Part shown: one piece after another, positions 12,651-45,421 of the stretch
How the letters are laid out: every line of letters starts with the position of its first letter
How positions within the stretch are numbered: the first letter of the stretch is position 1
Origin: Bacteroidales bacterium
GTDB lineage: Bacteria > Bacteroidota > Bacteroidia > Bacteroidales > VadinHA17
NCBI GenBank assembly: GCA_036261255.1
Contig: DATALD010000051.1
Span: forward strand, 2,575 to 66,574
DNA length: 64,000 bases
Reading direction: 5' to 3'
Notes under the pieces: generated by a model
What the model was told of the DNA's origin: nothing
Database searches by the model: none
The model's input: the letters and a program-made list of their open reading frames with translations, nothing else
Translations under genes and position numbers: made by a program

Positions 12651-12701
12651 CAAAAAAAATTAATTCAAACCGGGCTATTTTTTCAATAATTCAGTAACGA
12701 G

Positions 12702-27476: not shown

Positions 27477-27516
27477 CAATTCATAATTCAAATACTAACA
27501 TCTAAATACCTTGACA

Positions 27517-28686: not shown

Positions 28687-28704
28687 TTTTCAGATTTCAG
28701 ATTA

Positions 28705-29879: not shown

Positions 29880-30623
29880 TTGAAAGAAAAAGGGAAAATA
29901 TATTTTGCGTCAGATTTCCACCTGGGATTAGCAGCAGGATCGCTTCCAATTGAAAGAGAAAAGAGAATAGTATCATGGCTTGATAAAAGCAGGGCTGATG
30001 CCACAGCTTTTTACCTGCTTGGTGATATCTTTGATTTCTGGTGGGAGTACAGGAAGGTTGTTCCAAAAGGGTTTACAAGGTTTCTTGGTAAAATATCTGA
30101 AATAACAGACACTGGAATACCTGTTCATTTCTTCACAGGAAACCATGATATGTGGGTATTGGATTATTTTCGGAATGAATGCGGAATGATAGTGCATACC
30201 GGCCCGGTAATCGAGAAATTCGACGGCAAAACTTTTTATCTTGCTCATGGAGAAGGACTTGGATCGAATGATAAAGGGTATGCCTTTCTCCTCGCAATCT
30301 TTCGTAACAAACCTTTGAGAAAGATGTATTCAGCGCTCCACCCAACGATAGGAATGGGCATTGGACACAGCTGGTCACTAAATTCAAGACTTGCTAAGGG
30401 TATAAAAAGAGACTTTCTTGGTGAAGATAAGGAAGATCTTATCAGATATGCAAAAATGGTTTTGAAGAATGAGAAAGTTGACTATTTCATATTTGGCCAT
30501 CGGCATCTCGGAATGATTCACGATCTTGGACAGGCCAGGGTGATTCTTTTAGGCGACTGGATAAAAGGTGGAAGCTTTGCAGTATGGGATGGAGAAAGAG
30601 TTGAACTTACGAGTTTTGATTAA
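29880..30623 (+). CDS. lpxH: UDP-2,3-diacylglucosamine diphosphatase (LpxH family metallophosphoesterase)
   Basis: IYFASDFHLG, YLLGDIFDFWWEY, FFTGNHDMW, AHGEG and FGHRH. TTG start, so the exact start is uncertain. Confidence 0.85.
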   Translation: MKEKGKIYFASDFHLGLAAGSLPIEREKRIVSWLDKSRADATAFYLLGDIFDFWWEYRKVVPKGFTRFLGKISEITDTGIPVHFFTGNHDMWVLDYFRNECGMIVHTGPVIEKFDGKTFYLAHGEGLGSNDKGYAFLLAIFRNKPLRKMYSALHPTIGMGIGHSWSLNSRLAKGIKRDFLGEDKEDLIRYAKMVLKNEKVDYFIFGHRHLGMIHDLGQARVILLGDWIKGGSFAVWDGERVELTSFD

Positions 30624-31728
30624 CTTTTTCTTCCACTTTTACATTAAGCATATAATAAGAATAGAGGTCATTTATCCTGTCAAAATCATAATCAAGCTTG
30701 CTCCCTGATTTTCTTGCCATCTCAATTAACCCCATATTACCTGTACTTTCAGTTTCAGTAGTCTGGCTTGATAAGGATTTCCTGAATAGTTCTTTTAAAC
30801 CAAGCTTGTCATATTTATTAATGATATCTATCTTATCTTTTAAAAAGCCTACATTCTCATTAAGAATCAGATTCCCTGTAGTAAGTGAGAAGACCTTGTC
30901 TTCCATTCTGATCATGGCCATTGGCATACCATATTGTTCTTCAGGGATCCTGCCAGGGCTGTATTTTGAGACATTCTCAAGAATCTCGACAAGTATACTG
31001 AATACTTTCCTTCGAACATTTGAGGCGACATCATCTTCACTAAGCTTTGTTTCTGTAAATGATATCACTTCTTTACCTATGTCTGGTGAAATATGTCCCG
31101 ACCAGATAAGATAGAGGTTGCTCTCTGCCATAATTTTCTCAAGTTGAGAATAGGACACCCCACTAAAAGTATTTTCTGCATCTTTATGAATACCCATTCC
31201 CCCTGAATCAACTGTTTTGCTAAGGACAAAATATGAATACTCATCATCTATTTTTACAAAATCGTAATCGAGTTTATTTCCTGTTTTTTTTGCCATCTCA
31301 ATTAAACCAAGGCCAGCTCCGCCCTTTGTACTGAACTCAGATGAACTCAGCATGCGACGGTATACATTTCTAATGTCTTTATTTTCAAGCTTATTAACTG
31401 CATCAAGCTTTCGTTTAAGATCTTTCTTAGCTGAGTTTGGCAGGACATTACCTGTTGTGACTGTGTAGCCTGTAGAAGTTTTGGAATATACAACAAGCGA
31501 CATATTTGCGTGCCTGTTATTAAGGCTATGCCTTGATACGTTCTGGAGACTCTCAAGAACAAACATGAACAGTCGCTTTCTTCCGACAAAACCAAATTCA
31601 GAATTCTCCATCTCCTTTTCGAGAAGCATCAATAATGGAACTGAATTTTCATTTGTGACGATGCCGCGATAGACAAACATGAGATTCTCCTTCATCATTT
31701 TGTCGCGGATAAGACGGGTTAACTCCAT
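30607..31728 (-). CDS. Internally duplicated GHKL-type (SiaB/DUF6272-like) putative protein kinase
   Basis: Two homologous halves of about 186 aa. Each carries a ..(F/I)(V/L)ES/EILQNVS(R/K)(H/Y)S core helix and ends in GLIEMA(K/R)K(T/S)G(N/S)KLDYDF..(I)(D/N)D.YSY(F/Y). The family assignment is from memory and needs an HMM search. Confidence 0.6.
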   Translation of the reverse strand: MELTRLIRDKMMKENLMFVYRGIVTNENSVPLLMLLEKEMENSEFGFVGRKRLFMFVLESLQNVSRHSLNNRHANMSLVVYSKTSTGYTVTTGNVLPNSAKKDLKRKLDAVNKLENKDIRNVYRRMLSSSEFSTKGGAGLGLIEMAKKTGNKLDYDFVKIDDEYSYFVLSKTVDSGGMGIHKDAENTFSGVSYSQLEKIMAESNLYLIWSGHISPDIGKEVISFTETKLSEDDVASNVRRKVFSILVEILENVSKYSPGRIPEEQYGMPMAMIRMEDKVFSLTTGNLILNENVGFLKDKIDIINKYDKLGLKELFRKSLSSQTTETESTGNMGLIEMARKSGSKLDYDFDRINDLYSYYMLNVKVEEKVNQNS

Positions 31729-31928
31729 TGAGAATGGGTCAGTTTTGATTCCTCATAAAATTAAAATAAATTGATTAATTCACCCACAAAATGAAAAAAA
31801 TTCATCATAAATGATTAAACTTTAAAAAAAGTTAAAAAAAATGGACCTTGTTTTTCCAATATACAATAATTATCATTACGTTTAATCGCAATAATGATTG
31901 GTTTAATAAATGTGAAGTTTTTGTCTGT

Positions 31929-32813
31929 ATGAAGAAAAAGAACGAAGATTACGCTTTTCTGGAGGAATTAGTACAGAGAGGCGGGCCTAAAGAATCAGAA
32001 TATGAGAAGTTTACATCTATTGTTGATAACCTCGAACCTTCTGAGATCACCAGATTCAGGGAAGATGTCAATCCTGTTTTGAATGAGAATACCCTTATTG
32101 GTCATGCTTATGTTAAGCCTTATGGATATCCGGGTGATTTCCTTCTAATTGACTATATTTATAATTTTAAAGTCAACGAGGATGAACGATACCGTAACTG
32201 GGATTTGTTTTTCCAGAACCAGGCAGGTGCAAATGCAGTAAGAAACAGGAAAGATTATTTTGTCAGATATTGCAGTGAAATCTCAAAATCGAGGAATAAT
32301 CCTAAAGTTCTTATTCTTGGTTCCGGGCCAGGATCTGATGTTTATGAGTTTTTCTCAACATATCCCAATGCAAATATCAGCTTTGATCTGATTGATTTTG
32401 ACCAGGCGGCAATTGAGTTTTCTAAAGAAAGAAATAAAGTATTCAATGATAAAATTTCTTACTATAGAATAAATGCGCTTCGCTACAACTCGCTTAAGCT
32501 TTATGATCTTATTTGGAGCGCTGGTTTATTCGATTACTTCAAGGACAAGCATTTCAATTTCCTTGTCAGGAAGTATTATCATTGCCTTACTGAAGATGGA
32601 GAAATGATAATTAGTAATTTCAGCACAAGGAATCCAACAAAGAAACTGATGGAACACCTTTCTGACTGGTATCTTAACTTAAGAACAGAATCTGACCTTT
32701 ACAGAATTGCATCAGAGGCAAATATTGATAAGGAACTCGTTAGTATTGATAAAGAACCTCTAGGAGTCAACCTGTTTCTTAGGATTAAGAAAAATCACCT
32801 AAAAAAAATATAA
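31929..32813 (+). CDS. Class I SAM-dependent methyltransferase
   Basis: Motif I VLILGSGPGSD, acidic loop DLIDFD, post-I/II IWSAGLFDYF, and an N-terminal KPYGYPGDFLLIDYIY segment. I chose the ATG at 31929 (MKKKNEDYAF) over the track TTG at 31848. Confidence 0.75.
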   Translation: MKKKNEDYAFLEELVQRGGPKESEYEKFTSIVDNLEPSEITRFREDVNPVLNENTLIGHAYVKPYGYPGDFLLIDYIYNFKVNEDERYRNWDLFFQNQAGANAVRNRKDYFVRYCSEISKSRNNPKVLILGSGPGSDVYEFFSTYPNANISFDLIDFDQAAIEFSKERNKVFNDKISYYRINALRYNSLKLYDLIWSAGLFDYFKDKHFNFLVRKYYHCLTEDGEMIISNFSTRNPTKKLMEHLSDWYLNLRTESDLYRIASEANIDKELVSIDKEPLGVNLFLRIKKNHLKKI

Positions 32814-32822
32814 AGAAAACAG

Positions 32823-34802
32823 ATGTTCACTCTGCTGAAAAAAATAGCGACTCCTTTTTTCGGCACTCGTTCTTTAAACAAGAACGAGATGAATCTAAAT
32901 TATTTAACCCTGTCTTTTAAAGGGGAGGAGGCAAGTTTTGAAAAAGATTTCCAGGATGACTACTTCAAAAAATCGCTGTGGCATTTCAGGTTTTCGCTCA
33001 TCCTTTCAATGATCTTTTATGCCTCTTTTGCATTCCTCGATGCAAATATGGTTCCCTCACTAAAAGAAAAATTCTGGTTCATCAGATTCGTAGTTGTGTT
33101 TCCGGCGCTGGGGCTTGTTTACGCATTATCATTTGCAGGTTTCTTCAAGAAATATATGCAGCTAATAATCGCGTCGATAATGTTCATTACAGGCTTCGGA
33201 ATTATCATCATGAACGTTTTCGCATCAAGAATTGCCGTTCACACATATTATGCGGGTCTTATTCTCATTTTCATCTTCGGATACACTTTTATCAGGGCCC
33301 GCTTCATCTATGCATCTCTTGCCGGATGGTCAATAGTATTGTTTTACGAGATTTCAGCTACCGTATTAACATCAACCCCGGTGCAGATACTTGTGAATAA
33401 TAACTATTTTTTCATTAGCGCGAATCTTATCGGAATGTTTATTGCGTATTTTCTTGAGCTGTCTGCCAGGTCAGAATTTTATGTGAGGGTGCTTTTGGAA
33501 CGCGAGAAAGAAAACGTTAAAATTGCAAACAATGCTCTTGAAAAAAGAGTATTGGAAAGAACTGAACAGCTATACAACGCCAACCTCGATCTTAAAAAGG
33601 AAATAGAAATACGCAGGAAATTTGAAACCGAGAGAGCCGAACTTGAAAAACAACTTTTTCAACTTCAGAAAATGGAGACAATCGGCACCCTTGCAGGCGG
33701 TATTGCTCATGATTTTAACAACATATTAACCCCAATACTCGGGTACACCGATATGGCACTTGAAGAACTTCCCGTAGAGAGCAATCTTCGCTTTGATATA
33801 GAGCAGATAAATAATGCAGCCGTCAGAGGAAAAGACCTTGTTCAGCAGATTCTTACATTCAGCCGTGAAGTTGATTTCAACAAAAAGGCTATTAAGCTTC
33901 AACCAATAATTTCTGAAACCCTGAACCTTCTTAAAGCATCGTTGCCACCCGGGATAACGATAAAACAATCACTTGATCCACGTATTGGAACAGTGCTGGC
34001 CGATCCTACGCACATTCACCAGATCGTTATGAATCTTTGCACAAACGCAAATCATGCAATGCTTGCCAAGGGCGGTGTACTTGAGGTAAAACTCGATTCA
34101 GTGAGAATTGATCAGAAACAGGCTGACAAGATAAGAAACCTTAAAAAGGGAGAATACGTGTGTCTTACTATTTCAGATACTGGTCATGGGATGGACATTA
34201 AGACAAAGGAAAGAATTTTCGAACCTTTTTTTACACGTAAAGAAGTTGGGTTGGGTTCCGGTCTGGGCCTTTCAGTAGTTCATGGCATTGTAAATAATTA
34301 TGGCGGAGCAATTGAAGTTGAATCAAGCCCCGACAAGGGAACAACCTTCAGAATATACTTGCCACAATCAGGTTCTGATCCTGGTGAGTCAGATAAACTC
34401 GATAAAAGGCCTGTTAAAGGAGTTGAACATATTCTGTTTGTTGATGATGAACCCGAGATAATATTTATGGGTAAAAAGATGCTTGAAAACCTTGGATACA
34501 AAGTATCGATAAGAAGCGACAGTCAGGCTGCTCTTGAAGAATTTAAAGCTCATCCAGATAAGTATTCACTCCTCGTAACTGATCAGAATATGCCCGTTTT
34601 ATCAGGCACTGATCTTGCCAGGGAAATGCATCAAATAAGGCCGGAGTTCAAAATAATTATTATTACCGGTTTTGCAGATAATCTCTCGGATGAGATATTG
34701 ACAAGCCATGGCGTTTCAGAAGTTATTCTTAAACCCATGATCCTTGACGATTTCAGTAAAGTAATCAGGAGAGTACTAGATAAGAAACAAATAAAGAACT
34801 AA
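32823..34802 (+). CDS. Membrane-bound hybrid sensor histidine kinase / response regulator
   Basis: About 6 TM helices (residues ~50-215) and a coiled coil. H-box GGIAHDFNNIL, N/G boxes (NLCTNANHAM, DTGHGMD, GLGSGLGLS) and a C-terminal receiver (ILFVDDE..LVTDQNMP). Confidence 0.9.
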   Translation: MFTLLKKIATPFFGTRSLNKNEMNLNYLTLSFKGEEASFEKDFQDDYFKKSLWHFRFSLILSMIFYASFAFLDANMVPSLKEKFWFIRFVVVFPALGLVYALSFAGFFKKYMQLIIASIMFITGFGIIIMNVFASRIAVHTYYAGLILIFIFGYTFIRARFIYASLAGWSIVLFYEISATVLTSTPVQILVNNNYFFISANLIGMFIAYFLELSARSEFYVRVLLEREKENVKIANNALEKRVLERTEQLYNANLDLKKEIEIRRKFETERAELEKQLFQLQKMETIGTLAGGIAHDFNNILTPILGYTDMALEELPVESNLRFDIEQINNAAVRGKDLVQQILTFSREVDFNKKAIKLQPIISETLNLLKASLPPGITIKQSLDPRIGTVLADPTHIHQIVMNLCTNANHAMLAKGGVLEVKLDSVRIDQKQADKIRNLKKGEYVCLTISDTGHGMDIKTKERIFEPFFTRKEVGLGSGLGLSVVHGIVNNYGGAIEVESSPDKGTTFRIYLPQSGSDPGESDKLDKRPVKGVEHILFVDDEPEIIFMGKKMLENLGYKVSIRSDSQAALEEFKAHPDKYSLLVTDQNMPVLSGTDLAREMHQIRPEFKIIIITGFADNLSDEILTSHGVSEVILKPMILDDFSKVIRRVLDKKQIKN

Positions 34803-34808
34803 TAAATA

Positions 34809-35204
34809 ATGTCAAAGATACTTGTATTTGATGATGAGCCGTCCATCCTGCTGATGATAAAGAAGATGCTTGAAAAAGCAGGCCATGAGGTTGATGTAGC
34901 TCTGAATGCCAAAGAAGGGATGGTTATTTTTAATAAAAACATACCAGACCTTCTGATTACAGATATTATTATGCCTGAGAAAGAAGGATTGGAAACAATT
35001 TTCGAACTTCGGAGATTACATCCGAAACTAAAAATAATTGCAATTTCCGGTGGAGGCAGAATAGGTCCCGAGGGCTACCTTCCCGGAGCTAAGTTGCTCG
35101 GAGCCAATGCTGTTTTTGCCAAACCGCTAATCCCAAAAGACTTCCTGAAAGCTGTAGCTGACCTGCTTGGAGAAGACAAGAATAAGTTACATTATGTTCT
35201 ATAG
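34809..35204 (+). CDS. Single-domain (CheY-like) response regulator
   Basis: 131 aa. ILVFDDE..LLITDIIMPEKEGLE..IAISGG..KP. Starts 6 nt after the hybrid kinase. Confidence 0.9.
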   Translation: MSKILVFDDEPSILLMIKKMLEKAGHEVDVALNAKEGMVIFNKNIPDLLITDIIMPEKEGLETIFELRRLHPKLKIIAISGGGRIGPEGYLPGAKLLGANAVFAKPLIPKDFLKAVADLLGEDKNKLHYVL

Positions 35205-35729
35205 ACAAGCGGTTAATCGGCAGCTGGAACAAAAAGACTGGCTTTTCTGATCAATATCTTCTACATAGGTTACTGACCTCATTACGCAGGTTGGTACATT
35301 ACAATGCCTGAGCCCAAGCATGTGCCCAAGCTCATGGATAACCTCTTTTCTGAAACGGTTTAAATACAGTAAATCATCCTTCTTCATTCCATATAGCTCG
35401 TTGTCAAGCCTGAATGATGATGCAATACCGCTACGACCATTAAGATAAGCCTGCCCTAATATAAATGTAAGAATCGGAATGAAAATGTCAACATTGAATA
35501 ATCCAAGTGTCTTGAAACTATCTGAGCCATAAGAATAATCGATCTTCTTTAAGAGCTTGTTACCATCATACTGCCTTCGGGCTGCATCATAGAACTCCGT
35601 AAGATCAAGGTGTGCTTCCTTAAGTTCAACATGTAGCCTGAATTCATTCACAACAGCTTCTTTTATCATTCCAAGAAATTCATTCTCAAAATGACCAAAA
35701 TAAATAAGTCTTATTTTATGGGGATCCAT
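35199..35729 (-). CDS. Archaemetzincin-type zinc metalloprotease (peptidase M54 family)
   Basis: HELGHMLGLRHCNVPTCVMRS..(16 aa)..CSSC (35220-35336) closely matches the archaemetzincin signature HEXXHXXGX3CX4CXM...CXXC. Size is 176 aa. Confidence 0.8.
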   Translation of the reverse strand: MDPHKIRLIYFGHFENEFLGMIKEAVVNEFRLHVELKEAHLDLTEFYDAARRQYDGNKLLKKIDYSYGSDSFKTLGLFNVDIFIPILTFILGQAYLNGRSGIASSFRLDNELYGMKKDDLLYLNRFRKEVIHELGHMLGLRHCNVPTCVMRSVTYVEDIDQKSQSFCSSCRLTACL

Positions 35730-35751
35730 TAAATATGCTATTCTGGAAGAG

Positions 35752-37086
35752 CTAATTACTCTTTAGTCCGTACTTTGCTATTTTATTGTACAAAGTAACC
35801 CTGTCTACCTTAAGCGCCTTCGCCGCCCGAGAAATATTCCAGCCATATTTTTCAAGAATCAGGCTAATATGGCTTTTTTCAAGATCATCGAGACTTTCGG
35901 CTATATTTCCAGCAGCAGTTTTTTCAATAGGGAGATCTGATATTGTTATCTTTTTCCCATTTCCAATGACTATTGCTCTTTCAATCATGTTTTCCAATTC
36001 ACGAACATTCCCGGGGAAAGAATAGTTTTTCAGCCTTTCAATTGCAGTCTTATCAATGCTCACTTCAGTCCTGTTCATCGAATTGCAGTATTTCTTTGTG
36101 AAGTAATCGATAAGTAATGGGATATCCTCTTCCCTTTCCCTTAATGGCGGTATTTTTATGTTCACAACATTCAGCCTGTAGTACAGATCTTCCCTGAATG
36201 ATCCTTCGTCTACCATCGCTTTCAGGTCCCTGTTTGTCGCACAGATAACCCTGAAATCAGACGATATTTCTTTGTTACCTCCTACCCTCGTAAATCTTTT
36301 TGTTTCAAGAACCCGCAGAAGATCAATCTGCATCTTAACAGATATCGTGGCTATCTCATCAAGAAAAATTGTTCCGTTGTCAGCCATCTCAAACCTTCCC
36401 TTCCTGTTATACATGGCGCCTGTAAAAGCTCCTTTTTCATGCCCGAAAAGCTCACTTTCGAGGAGACTTTCTGATAATGCTCCGCAATGAACGCTGACAA
36501 GCGGGAAAAACTTGCGTGACGAATTTGAATGGATAGCTCGTGCCACAAGTTCCTTACCTGTACCGCTCTCACCAGTAATAACAACTGATGAATTTGATTT
36601 CGAAACACTTTCAATTGCTGAAAGCACCTTCCTCATTGGTTCACTCCTGCCTACCAGGTCATCAATATTTTCGAGACTGACAACCTTCTGCTTTAACGAC
36701 TCATTCTCTTCAACAAGTTTAACCTGCCTCGATGCATTCCTTATCAGGTGAGTAAGATCATCGGGATCAAAAGGTTTGGTTATATAATCAAAAGCGCCAT
36801 CCTTAAGAGCCCTTACAGCAGTGTCGACAGTAGCAAAAGCTGTCATTATTATAATTAATGCATCAGGCCTTAGCTGCTTGATTCGTCGCATCATTTCAAG
36901 ACCATCCATACCAGGCATCTTTATATCTGCAAGAATAATATCAAAATCACCCGACTCAATCATTGTCAGGGCTTTCCCGGCATTTTCAGCACAATCAACC
37001 CTGTACCCGTCTTCCTCGAACCAATTTAATAATGAATCCCTTACAGATTCTTCGTCATCTACGATCAGTATTGATATTGTTTTCAT
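35752..37086 (-). CDS. Sigma-54-dependent response regulator (NtrC family)
   Basis: Receiver (ILIVDDE..ILADIKMPGMDG), AAA+ domain with Walker A GESGTGKE and the GAFTGA motif, and a C-terminal Fis-type HTH. Confidence 0.93.
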   Translation of the reverse strand: MKTISILIVDDEESVRDSLLNWFEEDGYRVDCAENAGKALTMIESGDFDIILADIKMPGMDGLEMMRRIKQLRPDALIIIMTAFATVDTAVRALKDGAFDYITKPFDPDDLTHLIRNASRQVKLVEENESLKQKVVSLENIDDLVGRSEPMRKVLSAIESVSKSNSSVVITGESGTGKELVARAIHSNSSRKFFPLVSVHCGALSESLLESELFGHEKGAFTGAMYNRKGRFEMADNGTIFLDEIATISVKMQIDLLRVLETKRFTRVGGNKEISSDFRVICATNRDLKAMVDEGSFREDLYYRLNVVNIKIPPLREREEDIPLLIDYFTKKYCNSMNRTEVSIDKTAIERLKNYSFPGNVRELENMIERAIVIGNGKKITISDLPIEKTAAGNIAESLDDLEKSHISLILEKYGWNISRAAKALKVDRVTLYNKIAKYGLKSN

Positions 37087-37102
37087 ATTGAGATTTGCCT
37101 AA

Positions 37103-37160
37103 AGTGACTAGAGTGACTAAAGCAAGGAGTGACTAAAGTTGTCATATTAAGAGAGTTATG
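37103..37160. repeat. Inverted copies of the CATAACTCTAGTCACT repeat family
   Basis: AGTGACTA(G/A)AG occurs 3 times (37103, 37112, 37128), plus AGAGTTATG (37152-37160). These are the reverse complement of pieces of the 16-mer tandemly repeated at 18274-18305. The tract overlaps the stop codon of the kinase gene. Confidence 0.7.
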
Positions 37161-38826
37161 TTGTTATGAGGGGAAGGAGGATTGACATAGTGGTGCCTTT
37201 ACCTGGTTCTGTAGTAACATCGATCTGCCCGTTGTGGTTTTTGATAATACCATGAACTATTGCCAGGCCGAGTCCGATTCCTGAAGCCTGGTGTTTTGTT
37301 GAAAAGAACGGTTCGAAAATATGTGGGAAATCATCTTCTCTTATTCCTACTCCATTATCTGCTATATCAATCCTTATATTTCCGCTATCCGGATTTGAGG
37401 TGCCGATTATTATTTCACCATCTGTTGTTATAGCTTCCATAGCGTTAACTATTATAGCTATGCATGCCTGTTTTATCTGGTTGGAACTGCAAAAAACAGT
37501 ATCTGATACAGCAGCAAGGTTAGTTGTGAACCTGATGTTGGCCATTGTCACAGGATGCATCATAAGTTCATACGTCTCCGTTAGAATGTTATTTATATGT
37601 TTTTGTTCAAAATCTTCTTTTTCTTTCCTCGAGAAATCAAGCAATCCTTTTACTATTTCACCACATCTCTTCGTCTCTGCCTCAATAAGCTTAAGATGCC
37701 TGAGCATTGATTCGCGTTTTGAGGCATACACCTCCGGATTGTTTAATTGTTTATGAATCAGCTTTGTGTAAATGAGTATTCCTGACAAGGGATTATTGAG
37801 TTCATGAGCAACAGAAGATGAAAGTTTTCCAAGCGAAGCAATCCTCTCAATATGGATAAGCTCATTCCTGGCAGCACCAAGCTCTTCCGACTTTTTTCTC
37901 ACTTTATATTCGAGCTGTTGTGACCAGTTCTTAAGCTCTTCATTTGCAGCCTGCAACTTGTCCAGCATTTCATTAAAAGCAACAGAAACTGTTCTCATGT
38001 CATCGAGCTGCTGAGGCTTTATATCAAGCCTTGTTGCCTTATCGCCACCAGCCACAGCGAGACTTGCTTTGATAATATTATTAAGCGGCTCTTTAATTTC
38101 CCTCCTGGTAAAAACTATCAGAGTTACTATTAATAACAAGGTAATAATAGTTGCAATGAAATAAAATCTCGCAGACGATTGGCGAACCGTGTTATCAAGA
38201 TCTTCAAGGGGCATCTTGATTATTAATGATCCCAGGATAGCTTCAGATTCCTGATGAGCATGGCATGAAGCTGTGTAACACGATCGTTCATTCAGAATTG
38301 GAGATCTTATAAGAAGATGCCTGTGTGTATTGTCATTTTTATTCATTACGCAATCATTATTAACAGGCATTATCCTGTAGGACTTTTCCTTTGCCGGGAA
38401 CATTGAAGACAGGTTTGTATGGCACGACCGGCAATCAGGATTGCTTTGAGAAGAAGCCATGGTACTTACAGAAGAATAGATAAGGCTGTCGTCTTCATTG
38501 TACATATTAACAGCATCAATACCAGACATAGTATGTATCTGATCGAGAGTATTCTGGAGCATGCTTTTATCATTCTCAAGCATCGAATAATAAAGCGATC
38601 CTTCCACTATTGAGCCTATGTTATTACCATTCTGCCTGATTACGTTGTTAAGGTTATTTTCATAAACAGACTTGAATATGATCCCAAGAGATACAAACAG
38701 GATGATTGATGAAATAGTAATAATGAATACGACACGGCCGTATATTGTCGACCTGAACCTTACATACTGTTTAAATTTTCTTCCTGAATCTCTTTCTCCC
38801 AAAATATTTCCTTGTCCCTGAATCAT
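37156..38826 (-). CDS. Sensor histidine kinase (TM - periplasmic Cys/His-motif domain - TM - HAMP - HisKA - HATPase)
   Basis: TM1 at ~31-52 and TM2 at ~221-240. The periplasmic loop contains CRSCH and CYTASCH. H-box SSVAHELNNPL and G boxes DNGVGI / GIGLGLAIV. Confidence 0.9.
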   Translation of the reverse strand: MIQGQGNILGERDSGRKFKQYVRFRSTIYGRVVFIITISSIILFVSLGIIFKSVYENNLNNVIRQNGNNIGSIVEGSLYYSMLENDKSMLQNTLDQIHTMSGIDAVNMYNEDDSLIYSSVSTMASSQSNPDCRSCHTNLSSMFPAKEKSYRIMPVNNDCVMNKNDNTHRHLLIRSPILNERSCYTASCHAHQESEAILGSLIIKMPLEDLDNTVRQSSARFYFIATIITLLLIVTLIVFTRREIKEPLNNIIKASLAVAGGDKATRLDIKPQQLDDMRTVSVAFNEMLDKLQAANEELKNWSQQLEYKVRKKSEELGAARNELIHIERIASLGKLSSSVAHELNNPLSGILIYTKLIHKQLNNPEVYASKRESMLRHLKLIEAETKRCGEIVKGLLDFSRKEKEDFEQKHINNILTETYELMMHPVTMANIRFTTNLAAVSDTVFCSSNQIKQACIAIIVNAMEAITTDGEIIIGTSNPDSGNIRIDIADNGVGIREDDFPHIFEPFFSTKHQASGIGLGLAIVHGIIKNHNGQIDVTTEPGKGTTMSILLPLITT

Positions 38827-38921
38827 TTCAGACCAGAATTAAACACATCCCATTGCACTAAGTTAGGAAGATTTTCATTAAAAACACATGGCTTCTTCCG
38901 GGATGTTAAACGCCAGGAACT

Positions 38922-40583
38922 TCAGATAATTTCATAAAACCAAACTTGTTTTGAAGGATCGATAATTTTGATTTGAAATTCTTCCCAGGCTTCAGGGCTC
39001 ATCTCAGAAAGGAAACCCTCATACAACATTCCTCCATCCTGAAGAGCAATCGCAAGATTTTCCTGCTTACTTACGAGCGAGGCAAGCATATCTTTTATTT
39101 TCACAAGCTCACCTGTGATGAACTGTTTATGTTTTTCAGTCATGAAAAGAAGCTGGTTTTCGCGCTGCCAGTTGTCAGGTTCAATCATGTAAACCCAGCC
39201 TTCAGAGTATGGGGAATTGTTTATTATCGAGGGATCAGATCCAACCAGGGAGTTTCTTCTGCGGATCGTTCCTGTTACGGGTGAATAGAGCGAGATCTTT
39301 TTCCCGTTCTGAACAAGAGATAACAATACTTCGCCTTTCTTTACTTTATCACCTTCATTTTTCATCTCGATCCTGTTAAGCGGACCAGTGAGCCTCAGAA
39401 TAAAGTCATCTATACCTGTTCTTACATACCCGTTCTGTTCAAGGAAAGCCCAGGTATGAGTCTTATCGAAATACATTCCTGCCGGAAAAATCAGGGTATT
39501 TTCATTAAGAGCCCTGCGAGGCAGGTTTTCAATGATTCCGTCAGCAGGTTTTCGTCTGAACATTCGAGCTGCAAATTGGAAAAGCAGCAAAACTGCAATT
39601 AGTGCACCAATGAATATAAATATTCCTTTAAAAACTGACTTTTGGACGGGATTATCGATTATAGCCGGAATGCCGACTATTCTATCATTTATTGAAACCT
39701 TTTCAGTTGGAAGAATTGTAGTAAAACCTGATTTCTCAATTGTTTCCTGGCCTTCGTTCAGAATAAAGTCAAGAAAAGATTTTGCCTCCTTGTTTTCAGA
39801 GACCGGCATGATAAAATAAATATTTGAATAGAGGCTTTTTTGATATTTCCCGATCCAGACGCCTCTTGTAAACGAAGTAATGTCTTTGAATATGTTTTCA
39901 CTATAGTCAAGTGATCCATTGCCGTCTTTATCTAAAGGTAACAGGTTAATACTTCTCATCAACGAAGTATCGCTGGAATATTGTATGTCGCTAAGCCGGC
40001 AAAAACCGATTGAGTATTTGTCTTCCATAACAGATTTAAGCATTTGCCTTGAATCTTCCGGAAGAACAACATCAATATTTTCCGTTGGCCCTGTAATGCG
40101 TGCTATACTTTCAAGAACGACCTTGTCTTTTGCAACATGCATTGTAATCCTGTCTGCAGCATTGCCTCCCAGGAGATAACCCCAGTTAGCCTTGCTCCTG
40201 TCCTTCATTGCTTCCTGCAGCTTATCTGAAGGAATTCCTTCAGACATTATTGCATCCATGTAAGGGTTCTTTGAATTGAATACAGTTACAACAATGTTGC
40301 GACCTATTACAAACCTTAAATACTCATTACTGGAAAAATCTACAGGATGTTCGCTGCTAACAATTGCCACACTTCCATTTAATGTAATCCCTTTAACAGA
40401 ATCGTTCAGTTCTGTTATAACAATGCTATTCTGACCAGACTTGTAGCTTTTAGCCCATTCACTTGCAAGGTCTTTAATATCTGCAGAACATAGAACATTA
40501 AGTGAGTCCTTATCACCTTTTGAACCTGACACTTTTAAATTTGCAGCAGCCAGCATTATCAGCAAATAGATAATTTTCTTCAT
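38922..40583 (-). CDS. Fusion protein: periplasmic PstS/PhnD-like substrate-binding domain - single TM - cytoplasmic GcvH (glycine-cleavage H / lipoyl-carrier)-like domain
   Basis: Signal peptide. PBP-like region (..IVSSEHP.., YSIGFCRLSDI, LLPLDKDGNG). TM at 318-337 (FKGIFIFIGALIAVLLLFQF). Residues ~365-470, MYFDKTHTWAF..GYVRTGIDDF....G..V.KGEVLLSLVQNGKKISLYSPVTG.....N......P..IN..PY.EGWVYMIEP, follow the GcvH pattern. Confidence 0.65.
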   Translation of the reverse strand: MKKIIYLLIMLAAANLKVSGSKGDKDSLNVLCSADIKDLASEWAKSYKSGQNSIVITELNDSVKGITLNGSVAIVSSEHPVDFSSNEYLRFVIGRNIVVTVFNSKNPYMDAIMSEGIPSDKLQEAMKDRSKANWGYLLGGNAADRITMHVAKDKVVLESIARITGPTENIDVVLPEDSRQMLKSVMEDKYSIGFCRLSDIQYSSDTSLMRSINLLPLDKDGNGSLDYSENIFKDITSFTRGVWIGKYQKSLYSNIYFIMPVSENKEAKSFLDFILNEGQETIEKSGFTTILPTEKVSINDRIVGIPAIIDNPVQKSVFKGIFIFIGALIAVLLLFQFAARMFRRKPADGIIENLPRRALNENTLIFPAGMYFDKTHTWAFLEQNGYVRTGIDDFILRLTGPLNRIEMKNEGDKVKKGEVLLSLVQNGKKISLYSPVTGTIRRRNSLVGSDPSIINNSPYSEGWVYMIEPDNWQRENQLLFMTEKHKQFITGELVKIKDMLASLVSKQENLAIALQDGGMLYEGFLSEMSPEAWEEFQIKIIDPSKQVWFYEII

Positions 40584-40635
40584 TTCTTTTAATTTTTTCC
40601 CTTCTGAAATTCAACTTAGTTATATGCAATTGTTT

Positions 40636-40651
40636 ACCAACAATAGTGCCA
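40636..40651 (-). promoter_or_regulatory. Candidate sigma-54 (-24/-12) promoter for the PBP-GcvH/kinase/NtrC/archaemetzincin operon
   Basis: The minus strand reads TGGCAC-TATTG-TTGGT against the consensus TGGCAC-N5-TTGC(A/T). The -24 element and spacing are perfect and the -12 GC reads GG. It lies about 50 nt upstream of the ATG at 40583. Confidence 0.35.
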
Positions 40652-40846
40652 TTGTATGCATATTACTCATTTACAAGTTGTTGTGCGGCATGAATAATAG
40701 CCTTATCGGATTTTAAATGTAGATATTTTAAACAGTATGAACATAATTATAGTCCCTCTGCCAGGAACAATGTGGTTCATGTTATTGTTGTGTATTTTTT
40801 CAACAAGTGTTGATAATTGCAACAACAAAGGGGATGAATCGAATTG

Positions 40847-40874
40847 GATAAAAATGCAGGGCGTTGCCCTGCAT
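40847..40874 (-). terminator. Rho-independent terminator after the orphan gene at 40887-41600
   Basis: 9-bp stem atgcagggc / gccctgcat with loop gtt. On the minus strand it is followed by TTTTTAT. Confidence 0.7.
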
Positions 40875-40886
40875 TAAGAAAAAAAT

Positions 40887-41600
40887 TTATTGTATCTGTT
40901 CTAAATCTTCAACTTTTATAAATTTCAAAAGCTCAGGTTTGAATCTTACACTTTTATAAAGTGATGAGTCTTGTAAGACATTATGTATCCCATCTATTGA
41001 AGACTGCATAATTCCATATCCTTCAACATTAAAATTCTTATTTATTGTAGGTTTGAAATACTCGACTAAATTGTCACCTATCATTCCATAAGTTTGCATA
41101 CTATAATACACTCGAGTTTTATTGTTATTAAGTTGAACAGAAGCAGCAACATTTGGAAGATTATCAATAGCTATCCCGTTTTTTACTCTTTTGAATAAAT
41201 AATGGAGTGAATAACCACATCCATAAACACTATCGTTATAAACACCTGTTTCTATGTAATAAACATTCACATTTGACTCTTTATTCTCCAACTTCACACC
41301 ACCAAAGCCAGGAATAGTTAAGCCTGCATTATGATCACCATCATAAATTTTTACAACCATGCGCATCTTTTCCAAATCATTTCTAGATTCTGGAATATGT
41401 TTCTTTACGACATTCTGTTCATTATCTGATTTTATGGGTACAGAGCTTCTTGAATCAACTACTCTAAATATAGAATCATTGAGAAAACCCTGAAAGTCCT
41501 CAAGCGCAAGTTTGTTACCACTAAATGAACATCTTGTAAAATTGAATAACAAGAACATAAAAAAAGACACCAAAAGGAAAGTTGATTTAAATGTTTTCAT
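40887..41600 (-). CDS. Hypothetical secreted protein or lipoprotein (orphan), AT-rich gene
   Basis: 237 aa with N-terminal signal FLLVSFFMFLLFNFTRCS. I recognise no family. Visibly more AT-rich than its neighbours, and it has its own terminator. Confidence 0.6.
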   Translation of the reverse strand: MKTFKSTFLLVSFFMFLLFNFTRCSFSGNKLALEDFQGFLNDSIFRVVDSRSSVPIKSDNEQNVVKKHIPESRNDLEKMRMVVKIYDGDHNAGLTIPGFGGVKLENKESNVNVYYIETGVYNDSVYGCGYSLHYLFKRVKNGIAIDNLPNVAASVQLNNNKTRVYYSMQTYGMIGDNLVEYFKPTINKNFNVEGYGIMQSSIDGIHNVLQDSSLYKSVRFKPELLKFIKVEDLEQIQ

Positions 41601-41693
41601 AGCATCAAAGAATTTAAAGTTAGGTAATTGGTTAAATCTTAAGAAATATGAATAACAGCATTTATAATCAAAAAAAATGTGGCTTCTCTGCCT

Positions 41694-43232
41694 TTACCCT
41701 GCCCATCCATCCCTGTCGAGATTCCTGTAATTAATAGCTTCTGAAAGGTGTTCAGCTTTAATATTTTCAGAATCACTGAGATCGGCTATTGTTCGGGCTA
41801 CCTTTAGTATCCTGTCATAAGCCCTGGCGGAGAGACCGCGCATCTCCATAGCGGTTTTGAGTAACCTGCCGCTCATTTCGTCAAGATGGCAGAATTTGCG
41901 TTGCATTGAGGAAGTCATCTGGGCATTTGAATAGATCCCTTTGACGTTTGAAAATCTTTGGGCTTGTATCGCTCTTGCCCTGACCACCCGTTCCCTGACT
42001 ATTGAAGAGCTTTCGGTTTTTACAGAGTCTGTCAGCTTATCATAATTTACTGGTGTTACTTCAATGTGTATGTCAATCCTGTCGAGTAAGGGGCCGGATA
42101 TACGATTGAGATATTTCTGAACCATCCCTGCTGTGCAGACACATTCTTTTTCAGGATGGTTGTGGAAACCACATGGACATGGGTTCATGCTGGCTATAAG
42201 CATAAAGCTTGCCGGGTAGTCTACTGAAGATTTTGCCCTTGAAATTGTTATTACCCGGTCTTCGAGCGGTTGACGCATAACTTCAAGAACTGACCTTTTA
42301 AATTCCGGAAGCTCATCGAGGAATAAAACCCCATTATGGCCAAGGGATATCTCACCTGGTTGAGGGTATGTACCCCCACCAACGAGGGCAACATCAGATA
42401 TTGTATGGTGCGGTGACCTGAATGGTCTCTTTGTCATCAGAGCTGTGTGGTCGTCAATCTTCCCTGCAACAGAATGAATTTTTGTAGTCTCAAGCGCTTC
42501 TTCAATTGTGAGCGGAGGAATAATAGTAGGGACTCTCTTTGCGAGCATCGTCTTGCCTGCACCCGGAGGGCCAACCATAATGACATTATGACCTCCCGCA
42601 GCCGCTACCTCCAGGGCTCTCTTAACATTTTCCTGGCCACGTACATCTGAAAAATCAACTTCGTACCTGTTTGCTTCACTGTTAAATATCTCCTGCAGGT
42701 CAACCTTCACAGGAGAAAACTGTTTTGTATTATTAAAAAAATCAATTACATCGGAAATGTTGTTCATCCCATAGACATCGAGACCTTCAACAACTGCTGC
42801 TTCTCTTTCGTTTTTTGCAGGTACTATCAATCCTTTAAACCCTTCTTCCCTCGCCCTGATAGCTATCGGCAGAACACCTTTGACAGCCTGGAGAGAGCCA
42901 TCGAGTGAAAGCTCTCCAACCATTACATAGGACTCAAGTTCAGAAGATGTTATCATTTCGTTGCCGGCAATAATGCCTATCGCGAGAGGAAGATCGTATG
43001 AAGATCCTTCTTTGCGGATATCGGCAGGCGCCATATTAATAAGCACCTGCTTACCCGGCCAATGGAGTCCGAGCACCCTCAGTGCCGATTCAATCCGCTG
43101 CTGACTCTCTTTGACTGCAACATCAGGAAGCCCTACAAGGAGGAATCTTACGCCCCTGGAAACATTGACTTCAATAGTAATAGTAACGGCATCAATGCCT
43201 GTTACGGCGCTTGTATAAGTTCTGACCAACAT
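41694..43232 (-). CDS. comM: YifB/ComM family Mg-chelatase-like ATPase
   Basis: MLVRTYTSAVTGIDAV.., a Lon-protease-like domain, Walker A VGPPGAGKTM and GVLFLDELPEF. I chose the start at M12 of the track ORF (43232). Confidence 0.92.
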   Translation of the reverse strand: MLVRTYTSAVTGIDAVTITIEVNVSRGVRFLLVGLPDVAVKESQQRIESALRVLGLHWPGKQVLINMAPADIRKEGSSYDLPLAIGIIAGNEMITSSELESYVMVGELSLDGSLQAVKGVLPIAIRAREEGFKGLIVPAKNEREAAVVEGLDVYGMNNISDVIDFFNNTKQFSPVKVDLQEIFNSEANRYEVDFSDVRGQENVKRALEVAAAGGHNVIMVGPPGAGKTMLAKRVPTIIPPLTIEEALETTKIHSVAGKIDDHTALMTKRPFRSPHHTISDVALVGGGTYPQPGEISLGHNGVLFLDELPEFKRSVLEVMRQPLEDRVITISRAKSSVDYPASFMLIASMNPCPCGFHNHPEKECVCTAGMVQKYLNRISGPLLDRIDIHIEVTPVNYDKLTDSVKTESSSIVRERVVRARAIQAQRFSNVKGIYSNAQMTSSMQRKFCHLDEMSGRLLKTAMEMRGLSARAYDRILKVARTIADLSDSENIKAEHLSEAINYRNLDRDGWAG

Positions 43233-43327
43233 AATTGTAGCACACATTTGGAAATGCAGCATCAAATTATGAAGAATTTGTCAAAGAGCAATCAAATAAT
43301 CCCTGAAAAGTTGAGCCTGGCTCTTAA

Positions 43328-43669
43328 TCAAATGGCATCACTTCCTCTCTCCCCGGTCCTGATCCTTATACATTCTTCGAGCGGAGTAATGAATATTTTT
43401 CCATCACCTACCTTGCCCCCGTTTGTGCGTGCTGCCTTAAGGATTGTTTCAACAGTGATATCAACAAAAGCATCATTAACCGCAATGTCAATTCTTATCT
43501 TTGGTGTAAGGTCAGGAATAATAACCTGGCCTCTGTGCAGTTCTTCAATTCTCTGCCTTCCATGTCCGGATACCTGACTGACAGTTATCCTGTTTATCTC
43601 AGCTTCTACAAGGGCTGTGCGTACCTTGTCGAGCTGGACTTCTCTTATAATTGCTGTAATTACTTTCAT
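43328..43669 (-). CDS. glnK: P-II family nitrogen regulator
   Basis: 113 aa. MKVITAIIR...LD.V..AL.. and GDGKIFI.PLEE. It lies immediately downstream of the ammonium transporter. Confidence 0.93.
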   Translation of the reverse strand: MKVITAIIREVQLDKVRTALVEAEINRITVSQVSGHGRQRIEELHRGQVIIPDLTPKIRIDIAVNDAFVDITVETILKAARTNGGKVGDGKIFITPLEECIRIRTGERGSDAI

Positions 43670-43686
43670 TTAGTTAGCTTTTAATA

Positions 43687-45015
43687 TTAACTTGGATTCA
43701 ACATTCCATATCCTCTTTCACCATGGTAAGAGCGATCAAGACCTGCCATCTCATCAGATTCATCTGACTTGAACTTTATAAATTTATTCATCAGTACAAT
43801 GATTATATATGTCATAATTGCAGCATATACTATTGCTATACCAACAGCAAGTACCTGGATGCCTAGCTGGTTCAATATAGTCCAGCTGCCTCCGGCTGCT
43901 TCAGCCGCATCTTTCCACCACGATGGCCTTATGAAGAATGTGAGAAGGATAGCTCCTGTTATTCCACCGACGCCATGTATGCCAAAAGCGTCGAGGCTAT
44001 CATCGTAGCCAAGCTTGTTCTTCAACTGAATTGCCATATAACATATAAGCGAAGCCGTGGCGCCAAGTATCATTGCCCCATACGGCTGAACAACTCCTGC
44101 TGCGGGGGTCACTGCAACAAGTCCAGCTAAAATGCCGCTCGCAAAGCCCAACGATGTTGCTTTGCCCTGGTGAAAGCTTTCTATCACGATCCAGGCAAGT
44201 GCGCCTGAGGCGGCAGCCACCTGTGTAGCAGTGAGAGCCTGTGCTGTGCTTAATCCTGATGCAATGCTGCTTCCTGCGTTAAACCCGAACCATCCTACCC
44301 AGAGAAGGCCGGCGCCGAGCATAGTAATTACAAGGTTATTCGGGCGTATTACCTGGTAAGGATAACCTCTGCGGGCTCCGAGATAAAGAGCAGCTACAAG
44401 TCCGCTTACACCGGCTGAAATGTGAACAACTGTTCCCCCGGCAAAATCTATTGCTCCTTTAGCGCCGAGATTAAAGAGGAAGCCATCATTCGACCAGACC
44501 CAGTGACAAAGCGGATTGTAAACAAGCAAGCCCCACAAGGCGATGAAAAAACAGTATGCTTTAAAAGAGACCCTTTCAGCAAAGGCGCCTGCAATTAGGG
44601 CAGGCGTAATGATTGCAAATTTTCCCTGGAACATTGAAAAGACATATTCGGGTATTCCTGCTTCCATAACATTTTCGTCAATGCCTTTCAGAAAAAAATA
44701 GTCATTATTCCAACCAAACCATCCGAATAAAACATTCTTTCCAAAAGCCATGCTGTAACCGACAACAACCCATAATACACTTATAATACCCATTGAAACA
44801 AAACTATGCATTATTGTACCCAACACGTTTTTTGAACGAACCAATCCGCCGTAGAACATTGCAAGTCCCGGGATCATTAGCAATACAAGTGTTGTTGATG
44901 TCAGCATCCATGCTGTGGCGCCCGTGTCAATTGGAACACTTCCTTCAGCTGATAAAGCCTGGCTCATGGCCAGACTTACCAGGATCATCATACTTCTTTT
45001 AAGATACTTTCTCAT
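43687..45015 (-). CDS. amtB: Ammonium transporter (Amt family)
   Basis: 442 aa, 11-12 TM helices. DTGATAWML, AIDFAGGTVVHISAG, GWFGFNAGS and DDSLDAFGIHGVGGI. Confidence 0.95.
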   Translation of the reverse strand: MRKYLKRSMMILVSLAMSQALSAEGSVPIDTGATAWMLTSTTLVLLMIPGLAMFYGGLVRSKNVLGTIMHSFVSMGIISVLWVVVGYSMAFGKNVLFGWFGWNNDYFFLKGIDENVMEAGIPEYVFSMFQGKFAIITPALIAGAFAERVSFKAYCFFIALWGLLVYNPLCHWVWSNDGFLFNLGAKGAIDFAGGTVVHISAGVSGLVAALYLGARRGYPYQVIRPNNLVITMLGAGLLWVGWFGFNAGSSIASGLSTAQALTATQVAAASGALAWIVIESFHQGKATSLGFASGILAGLVAVTPAAGVVQPYGAMILGATASLICYMAIQLKNKLGYDDSLDAFGIHGVGGITGAILLTFFIRPSWWKDAAEAAGGSWTILNQLGIQVLAVGIAIVYAAIMTYIIIVLMNKFIKFKSDESDEMAGLDRSYHGERGYGMLNPS

Positions 45016-45034
45016 TTTATTTATTTATTTCATG

Positions 45035-45042
45035 CAAATATA
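45035..45042 (-). promoter_or_regulatory. Candidate -7 box (TATATTTG) for amtB-glnK
   Basis: Minus-strand TATATTTGCATG matches TAnnTTTG, 20 nt upstream of the amtB ATG. Confidence 0.35.
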
Positions 45043-45368
45043 TTCAAATTATAGGGGGCGCTGTCTTTTTTTTATTCTTTTTTCATTATATACCCTATTT
45101 TTTTAAGGGTCGTTCCTATTATTTCAATGCATATTATGATTTTCCCCCGGGCTGCAAGAGGGGATATGATTAAATAGCTTAATAAGTTGTAAAGGTTGTA
45201 GGCATAAAAAATGCAGAGAAATCATAGTAATCGCTAGCATCTAAGCCTAGTGCTGTGACTCAGGGAGTGTATTATTGACAATGCAAAGAAGCAAAGCAAA
45301 GATTTTGACATAAAATTATTTAAAAATATTTGAGGATTTAAAAAAAGTATATATTTTTAACCGTTTGA

Positions 45369-45401
45369 TTAAACCTTTTGGTTTAAGTATTTATTTAAAC
45401 C
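45369..45401. promoter_or_regulatory. Candidate TetR operator: palindrome TTAAACC-TTTT-GGTTTAA plus a third TTAAACC half-site
   Basis: Perfect 7-bp inverted repeat at 45369-45386 and another TTAAACC at 45395-45401, directly upstream of the TetR ATG candidates (45404 / 45422). Confidence 0.4.
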
Positions 45402-45421
45402 AAATGATAAAACTTAAGGAG

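Follow-up and report, generated by a model that had tools for sequence, protein, structure and literature searches.

A conserved candidate sigma-54 two-component operon of Bacteroidales with a putative heme-sensing kinase, a membrane-anchored GcvH-like protein and an archaemetzincin

The WalRK-YycHIJ operon of Firmicutes includes single-pass membrane accessory proteins that control the kinase, and it carries a metallo-hydrolase as its last gene. In the HoxJ/HoxA and HupT/HupR systems and in the Desulfovibrio hmc operon with rrf1/rrf2, regulators are encoded together with hydrogenase or Hmc-type electron-transfer genes and control them. Here, we analyze a block of four minus-strand genes from a Bacteroidales bacterium (assembly GCA_036261255.1), located in a 64,000-nucleotide stretch of contig DATALD010000051.1 that we call the window. 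The block encodes a membrane protein with a PstS-like ectodomain and a cytoplasmic GcvH-like domain (gene 1), a sensor histidine kinase with heme-c motifs, an NtrC-type regulator and an archaemetzincin of the M54 family. Transcription by sigma-54 is documented in Bacteroidota, and sigma-54 control of hydrogenase genes has been noted as well (PMC12316311). There is precedent for covalent heme-c Cache sensors, a family of which was described in 2026 (PMC12889525). Archaemetzincins are recognized by the extended motif HEXXHXXGXXHCX4CXMX17CXXC, and little is known of their biological role (PMC3427221). In the literature we found no published description of this cluster and no characterised system of this composition, in agreement with the novelty that an earlier note, made from the letters of this DNA alone, had tentatively suggested for it.

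We favour, with moderate confidence, the view that the four genes form the core of a Bacteroidales-specific, sigma-54-dependent, self-activating two-component operon whose most likely signal is the redox state of the periplasm or a ligand of heme there, for instance a small gas. The genes follow each other from gene 1 to the M54 gene with gaps of only 95, 69 and 22 nt, and the last 6 nt of the M54 gene are shared with the convergent receiver gene (34809-35204). At the other side a terminator-like hairpin marks the end of the upstream gene 40887-41600 and the 5' boundary of the unit. The co-directional arrangement, the gaps and the overlap are thus as the earlier note had described them. From this layout we infer one sigma-54-dependent transcription unit with a single transcript. 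Because gene order, motifs and promoter are conserved in related loci, the block is, as judged by comparison, a real unit beyond chance.

Homologues of gene 1 are numerous enough to follow the block through related genomes. A search with the whole protein returned 912 relatives, and the best 120 of them are mostly about 570 amino acids (aa) long and bear automatic labels at most. An exhaustive profile search with the module of transmembrane (TM) helix plus GcvH-like domain against 1.84 billion representatives gave 420 clusters (50% identity) at E <= 1e-30, and most of the best 150 family representatives are fusions of about 560 aa. Searches with the individual sub-domains gave mostly fragments. 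The gene 1 family is real but modest in size. Nearly all homologues with a named source are assigned to Bacteroidales, Prolixibacteraceae, Marinilabiliales or Cyclobacteriaceae, and three records are labelled otherwise (Chloroflexota, Syntrophothermus and an unclassified 'bacterium'). We compared the contexts of individual homologues and 80 metagenome loci by tblastn. All 36 loci that extend far enough downstream have the order gene 1, optional cassette, kinase, NtrC-type gene and M54 gene, with the M54 gene always last, and the loci reached through individual homologues agree with it. The synteny that the earlier note had proposed as a check on its operon was hence found in every informative locus, and the profile searches it had proposed next to it support the GcvH-like and M54 assignments.

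A hint at what the operon may sense comes from the kinase. It is predicted to span the membrane twice (TM1 at about residues 30-52, TM2 at about 220-240) with a periplasmic single-Cache-type domain in between, followed by HAMP, HisKA and HATPase_c domains (Pfam). The CXXCH and CX4CH motifs lie between the two TM helices and would therefore face the periplasm. CX4CH binds heme in cytochrome c3. The CXXCH, a lone cysteine and the CX4CH-A-H sequence are invariant in 9 orthologues and 34 homologues; c-type heme motifs in the sensor loop had been pointed out before, and there are indeed two. A structure model of residues 25-300 (predicted local distance difference test, pLDDT, 77.8) shows a single Cache/PDC-type fold. 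In structure it comes closest to the extracellular domain of WalK (4ywz) and to a model of WalK with YycH, and Foldseek also matches it to the heme-c sensor domain of Geobacter GSU0935 (3b42). The closest Pfam family is sCache_4, which stays near threshold (20.9 bits vs 22.1). A conserved CXXCH motif within an extracytoplasmic Cache fold is a feature of sCache_heme sensors, and it is present here. Membership in that family (PF11845, sCache_heme/DUF3365) was considered and rejected, as there is no profile match; the sensor may work like the sCache_heme family without belonging to PF11845. In one relative (L002, positions 12670-12676) the kinase orthologue, which lies on a 4.38-Mb genome contig, is split into two open reading frames (ORFs) by a frameshift that may be a sequencing error or mark a pseudogene.

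The regulator has the make-up of an NtrC-type enhancer-binding protein. Pfam identifies Response_reg, Sigma54_activat (234 bits) and HTH_8 domains, and the sequence contains DIKMPGMDG around the receiver aspartate, GESGTGKE as Walker A motif and GAFTGA. Receiver aspartate, AAA+ domain and helix-turn-helix are thus all in place, in support of the NtrC-type assignment made earlier. The possibility that the block is an anti-phage defence system was rejected, since the regulator's PADLOC matches were no more than generic AAA+ ones. A fitting candidate promoter stands in front of gene 1. The site TGGCACtattgTTGG has a perfect -24 element and the correct spacing, with TTGG instead of the canonical TTGC at -12, and hence one mismatch to TGGCAC-N5-TTGC; counting both strands, the window has only five sites that deviate by no more than one base. 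The near-consensus promoter candidate proposed by the earlier note is therefore present, and it recurs: of the 74 loci with sufficient sequence ahead of gene 1, 71 carry TGGCAY-N5-TTG at a distance of 50-270 nt from the gene, and the spacer is conserved as roughly YRTWR.

Further upstream lie up to three enhancer-like sites. The palindrome TGTTG-N7-CAACA occurs in exact form only once in the window, at site 1, and in 8 of the first 10 related loci the exact palindrome is likewise confined to the region upstream of gene 1. Its distance to the -24 element is constant at about 170-183 nt across loci. Tandem sites with the 19-nt offset are also present in L007, L052 and L053, and a degenerate right half like that of site 2 is found in relatives. 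The third and weakest site has counterparts in L007, L050 and L092, which precede the promoter by 82-91 nt, and degenerate copies are similarly placed in L008 and L010. Conserved promoter position and upstream palindromic sites together are what one would look for in a sigma-54 promoter. The layout of these putative sites is as expected for an enhancer-dependent promoter that is served by the operon's own activator. The sole exact TGGCAC-N5-TTGC of the window, at 9761-9775 (+), is located inside a peptidase S41 ORF (8964-10271) and is probably a chance match.

Table 1. Genes, promoter-proximal elements and protein motifs of the four-gene block, with positions in the window
Feature	Position	Strand	Description
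Gene 1	38922-40583	-	553 aa ORF
Sensor histidine kinase gene	37156-38826	-	556 aa ORF
NtrC-type enhancer-binding response regulator gene	35752-37086	-	444 aa ORF; receiver, AAA+ with GAFTGA, Fis-type helix-turn-helix
Archaemetzincin (M54) gene	35199-35729	-	176 aa ORF
Sigma-54-type promoter (candidate) TGGCACtattgTTGG	40637-40651	-	-24 TGGCAC, -12 TTGG; 54 nt before ATG of gene 1
Enhancer-like site 1 TGTTGCAATTATCAACA	40808-40824	.	Perfect palindrome; 173 nt upstream of -24 element
Enhancer-like site 2 TGTTGAAAAAATACACA	40789-40805	-	Right half degenerate; offset of 19 nt to site 1
Possible enhancer-like site 3 TGTTTAAAATATCTACA	40718-40734	-	Two mismatches; 83 nt upstream of -24 element; weakest of the three
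Terminator-like hairpin GCAGGGCAACGCCCTGC	40848-40878	-	Followed by T run; read directly from the sequence
EF-hand-type loop DKDGNGSLDYSE	39897-39932	-	Gene 1 residues 218-229, inside PstS-like periplasmic domain; near-canonical
QNGKK hairpin of GcvH-like domain	39297-39311	-	Gene 1; from alignment to true H-proteins
CRSCH (CXXCH heme-c attachment motif)	38419-38433	-	Kinase residues 132-136
CYTASCH (CX4CH motif)	38260-38280	-	Kinase residues 183-189; followed by invariant AH

Gene 1 encodes a single-pass membrane protein. It is predicted to consist of a signal peptide, a periplasmic PstS-like domain (residues about 27-305), one TM helix (about 317-340), a flexible linker, the cytoplasmic GcvH-like domain (371-488) and a helical C-terminal extension (489-553). 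An AlphaFold2 model built on an alignment of 42 homologues (mean pLDDT 72.6) shows the same order, with an N-terminal alpha/beta domain and a long TM helix (317-340), then a linker modelled at low confidence, and finally a beta-sandwich with a helical tail. Although the N-terminal part gives only a weak Pfam match (SBP_bac_11), Foldseek against the PDB returns PstS or phosphate-binding proteins as all its top matches (best 4jwo, TM-score 0.68, 11-17% identity), and there is a profile match to 4h1x with an E-value of 2e-7, so that the ectodomain has the class II periplasmic binding-protein fold of PstS type. Together with the Pfam match to GCV_H in the C-terminal part, this bears out the earlier proposal of a periplasmic solute-binding domain fused to a cytoplasmic GcvH-like domain.

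One might think that the PstS-like domain binds a small anion or calcium as the main signal and passes it on to the kinase, in the manner of TorT-TorS or LuxP-LuxQ. The ectodomain clearly has the PstS-type fold, and the fusion predominates among the best 150 representatives of gene 1. The ectodomain also holds invariant residues and a near-perfect EF-hand loop, whose positions 1, 5 and 12 do not vary among 42 homologues, with at least 90% conservation at positions 3, 6 and 9. However, the anion-binding motifs of PstS (GSTS, GSS, SR) are replaced; against 4h1x, GSTS has become STPD, GSSAG has become SEKKL and VSRE has become VSNE. The domain is also the fastest-evolving part of gene 1, with 25-36% identity compared to 54-79% for the C-terminal half, the two ranges being taken against different reference sequences. 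In two loci (L091, L092) gene 1 is reduced to 226-229 aa with the TM helix and the GcvH-like module, and despite the missing binding domain neither the promoter nor the enhancer sites nor any of the genes further downstream have been lost from these loci. The kinase moreover has its own conserved cofactor-type sensor. For these reasons we regard solute sensing as the main signal as rather unlikely, although it is the alternative that survives best. Given the conserved EF-hand loop, calcium or the ectodomain may still provide an input. Phosphate sensing or transport as the primary role was rejected, because the PstS ligand residues are lost and pstCAB transporter genes are found neither in the window nor in the related loci.

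What most relatives carry between gene 1 and the kinase shifts the emphasis from solutes to electron transfer. In 65 of the 77 loci that could be classified this place is taken by a cassette of an HmcB/HybA-like twin-arginine iron-sulfur protein, an HmcC/HybB-like NrfD protein and a 236-aa membrane-anchored paralogue of the C-terminal half of gene 1. Nine loci have nothing there and show the four-gene form of the window, two (two contigs with an identical gene 1 protein) have a group A [FeFe] hydrogenase with the twin-arginine signal RRKFIEK, and one has the gene 1 paralogue only. The profile scores are 323 bits for the HmcB-like protein, 414 bits for the HmcC-like protein and 415 bits for the hydrogenase (cut-off 406). 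The second GcvH-like gene always travels with the cassette, and a tetraheme cytochrome c gene with four CXXCH motifs often stands just upstream of gene 1 in relatives, with neither the promoter element nor the enhancer-like element in front of it. The earlier note had suggested that the fusion protein is a co-sensor linking an extracytoplasmic ligand and/or redox state to the kinase. Since an electron-transfer cassette is present in most relatives, the redox part of this proposal is strengthened, while the solute part is weakened by a binding domain that is divergent, has lost its ligand residues and is optional.

The window itself lacks genes for HmcB/HybA-like and HmcC/HybB-like proteins, hydrogenase and such cytochromes throughout its 64 kb, as searched with tblastn. 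On a neighbour-joining tree of regulator and sensor the four-gene loci are scattered among the seven-gene loci, which argues that the cassette was lost at least five or six times while the core was kept intact. The window thus carries, as far as the tree can tell, a recurrently derived four-gene form of a larger operon. Compared with the L010 proteins, its regulator is 80% identical, the kinase 72%, the M54 protein 64%, the GcvH-like half of gene 1 56% and the binding domain 32%. All-against-all clustering of the ORFs from 93 loci found no further recurrent partner such as lipoate ligase, cytochrome maturation or rpoN genes. A SiaB-family kinase gene and housekeeping neighbours recur in one clade only.

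The cassette also invites a structural reading, namely that an HmcBC/HybAB-like membrane complex has gene 1, the paralogue of gene 1 and the protease as its subunits or maturation factors, and that these are mere leftovers in the window. It fits this idea that the cassette directly follows gene 1 in most classified loci, that the second GcvH-like gene always accompanies it and that GcvH-like genes flank it on both sides. However, gene 1 and the protease are intact in the nine cassette-free loci, which belong to several distinct branches. Both genes are intact ORFs with conserved motifs across about 40-64% protein identity, and the hydrogenase can replace the cassette while gene 1 stays. We therefore find an assembly role improbable, and give it somewhat less credit than a solute signal.

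The GcvH-like domain of gene 1 is a well supported fold with an unusual lysine position. It matches Pfam GCV_H (PF01597, residues 371-488) with an E-value of 1e-21 and 77.5 bits (cut-off 22.2), and the beta-sandwich superimposes on the H-protein 1onl with a root-mean-square deviation of 1.9 A over 105 residues at 30% identity. The domain preserves the majority of the GcvH signature motifs. Where the H-proteins of E. coli and T. thermophilus have their lipoyl-lysine, the alignment places the invariant G427, and the next residue, K428, is nearly invariant (QNGK). Thus, of the lipoyl-carrier-like character proposed earlier, the GCV_H fold and profile stand, whereas a glycine occupies the lipoyl-lysine position and the conserved lysine is shifted by one; a role as lipoyl carrier is uncertain. 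The protein also misses the equivalog and subfamily cut-offs for GcvH (NF002270, 72 vs 117 bits; TIGR00527, 60 vs 115.85 bits), and no GCV_T or GDC-P domain was found among the ORFs of the window that were scanned. A canonical GcvH of glycine cleavage was rejected on these grounds, that is the scores, the wrong lysine register and the lack of gcvT and gcvP. Unlike the small soluble GcvH, the domain is part of a 553-aa membrane protein, and it is followed by a strongly conserved C-terminal extension of 65 residues (LQDGG..., PE.WE.F) that has no relative in Pfam or the PDB.

The protease is by profile and motif a true archaemetzincin and is predicted to be cytoplasmic. It scores 152.3 bits against NCBIfam NF033823 (cut-off 145) and 79.5 bits against PF07998 (cut-off 24.4), in keeping with the earlier assignment. 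The extended motif is present as HELGHMLGLRHCNVPTCVM, 16 residues and CSSC, with a spacer one residue shorter than in the published motif, and it is conserved in 34 orthologues. One could imagine that the GcvH-like module is a swinging-arm carrier whose shifted lysine bears a lipoyl or acyl group and relays redox or metabolic state to the kinase and regulator, with the archaemetzincin as a dedicated amidase or protease that resets or matures the carrier. We consider this a long shot. If true, it would provide the first physiological substrate for bacterial archaemetzincins and a new accessory principle in two-component signalling. That the four genes are independent chance neighbours without shared function is next to impossible given their invariant order among proteins as low as 33-60% identical, the short gaps, the upstream terminator, the conserved promoter and flanks that show no additional recurrent partner family.

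Several observations do weigh against a self-activating heme or redox sensor as we favour it. The sensor does not match PF11845, the described heme-Cache family, even at an E-value of 10, and the lone invariant cysteine and the CX4CH could form a metal or disulfide site instead. At the promoter, TTG is followed by A or G in 57 of 61 distinct sequences and by C in only 2, so that the -12 element departs systematically from TTGC. No second exact enhancer palindrome is present in the window, so no other regulon member was found there, and genes for rpoN and cytochrome c maturation were likewise not found in the 64 kb. The operon of the window has no obvious effector besides gene 1 and the protease. 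The TM helix of gene 1 is poorly conserved, which argues against a specific helix-helix contact with the kinase.

For the heme or redox sensing operon that we prefer, we propose the following order of events. The kinase would expose its single-Cache-type domain of about 165 residues to the periplasm and bind heme at the two motifs. A change at the heme or hemes would, as known for the protein family, alter autophosphorylation and phosphotransfer to the NtrC-type regulator. The regulator would then bind the TGTTG-N7-CAACA sites, which precede the promoter by about 85-190 nt, and activate gene 1, kinase, regulator and protease on what is presumably one transcript. In most relatives the periplasm-facing electron-transfer cassette on the same transcript would be the likely physiological output; the lineage of the window has lost this cassette, along with no fewer than five other lineages. 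With low confidence we suggest that gene 1 is an accessory membrane protein that modulates the kinase or regulator or serves as their adaptor, with the TM helix and the GcvH-like module as its constant part, and that the optional PstS-like ectodomain with its calcium loop adds an input. Equally tentatively, the archaemetzincin might act as a cytoplasmic processing or turnover factor within the loop. For these accessory roles of gene 1 and the protease the comparison, by layout, is with WalRK-YycHIJ.

Several features of the block and its surroundings deserve mention on their own. The gap between kinase and regulator (37087-37155, 69 nt) contains TAGTCACT three times inside 45 nt. No Rfam match indicative of structured RNA in the leader or the gaps was found within 30000-46000. 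The upstream ORF 40887-41600 (-) encodes 237 aa with an N-terminal hydrophobic, signal-like segment and no CXXCH motif, has no match in Pfam, NCBIfam or PADLOC, and sits where relatives have the tetraheme cytochrome c gene. Between that cytochrome gene and gene 1, L010 (7280-8000) and the equivalent regions of L002, L008 and L009 contain about 700 nt without an ORF of at least 60 aa, and promoter and enhancer sites fill only about 300 nt of this spacer. On the convergent side (32823-35204, +), a MASE8-type hybrid histidine kinase (659 aa) and the stand-alone receiver (131 aa) run towards the operon. Both are restricted to the sub-lineage to which the window belongs (L004-L007, L009) and are therefore outside the conserved module. 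The gene at 30607-31728 (-) encodes a tandem-DUF6272 protein whose L010 orthologue matches the NCBIfam model for SiaB-family protein kinases. In one clade of relatives this DUF6272/SiaB-like gene directly follows M54; in the window a methyltransferase gene, the MASE8 hybrid kinase and the receiver gene lie between the two. Elsewhere in the window Glycogen_syn, DUF3417 and alpha-glucan phosphorylase domains are joined in a single 1407-aa ORF (18321-22544, -), which belongs to a glycogen cluster that also encodes GH57, GT4, debranching and branching enzymes. Tandem gene pairs encode DUF4369-thioredoxin proteins (TlpA-like; 27511-29868, +) and rhomboid proteases (56220-57850, +).

If the favoured explanation holds, the operon marks a previously undescribed regulated periplasmic electron-transfer module of environmental Bacteroidales, made up of a tetraheme cytochrome and an HmcBC/HybAB-like pair or a periplasmic [FeFe] hydrogenase, which would bear on hydrogen and electron flow in sediments and wetlands. 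The kinase would add a second, so far unannotated lineage of putatively covalent-heme Cache-type sensors to the one described in 2026. The membrane-anchored GcvH-like protein with its displaced lysine points to a use of the GcvH fold beyond glycine cleavage and sulfur oxidation, and an archaemetzincin that is locked in a conserved operon with a defined regulator and a candidate partner makes the question of its role testable.

How do the proteins compare with their closest described counterparts? The GcvH-like module shares the fold, most signature motifs and 25-30% identity with GcvH and with LbpA of the sHdr sulfur-oxidation system. Unlike these carriers, gene 1 is membrane-tethered, has its unique conserved C-terminal extension and carries the lysine one residue further on, and no lipoate ligase gene recurs in its neighbourhoods (ORF clustering, 93 loci). 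A periplasmic binding-protein fold encoded beside a sensor kinase is also found in TorT-TorS and LuxP-LuxQ; in contrast to these, the binding domain here has a membrane tether and a cytoplasmic domain as fusion partner, is devoid of the ligand residues of its parent family and is optional. The sensor of the kinase resembles sCache_heme (DUF3365/Tll0287; PMC12889525) and the Geobacter proteins GSU0935 and GSU0582 in having CXXCH in a Cache/PAS-like periplasmic fold that is fused to a signalling output. These sensors have one motif, whereas here there are two (CXXCH and CX4CH), outside the PF11845 profile.

With HoxJ/HoxA, HupT/HupR and hmc-rrf the locus shares, in most relatives, the proximity of regulators to electron-transfer genes. 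However, in those systems hydrogen is sensed by means of a regulatory hydrogenase, or sigma-54 and heme are not the basis, and unlike them the window itself contains no hydrogenase or Hmc genes. The likeness to WalRK-YycHIJ is one of layout only: both are two-component operons with a membrane accessory protein and a metallo-hydrolase, and the best structural match of the sensor is WalK, but the accessory proteins and hydrolases are unrelated in sequence and WalR is no sigma-54 activator. The best match for kinase core and regulator is the NtrB/NtrC class (AtoS/AtoC, ZraS/ZraR). Scores of 203 bits for AtoS, 468 for AtoC and 403 for ZraR are all far under the equivalog cut-offs, and by these profiles the pair belongs to the NtrB/NtrC class as the orthologue of no named system. 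A -24/-12 promoter, upstream activator sites and autoregulation are typical of this class. What sets the Bacteroidales operon apart within it are the heme-c motifs in the sensor, the membrane-anchored GcvH-like protein, the archaemetzincin and the non-canonical -12 element.

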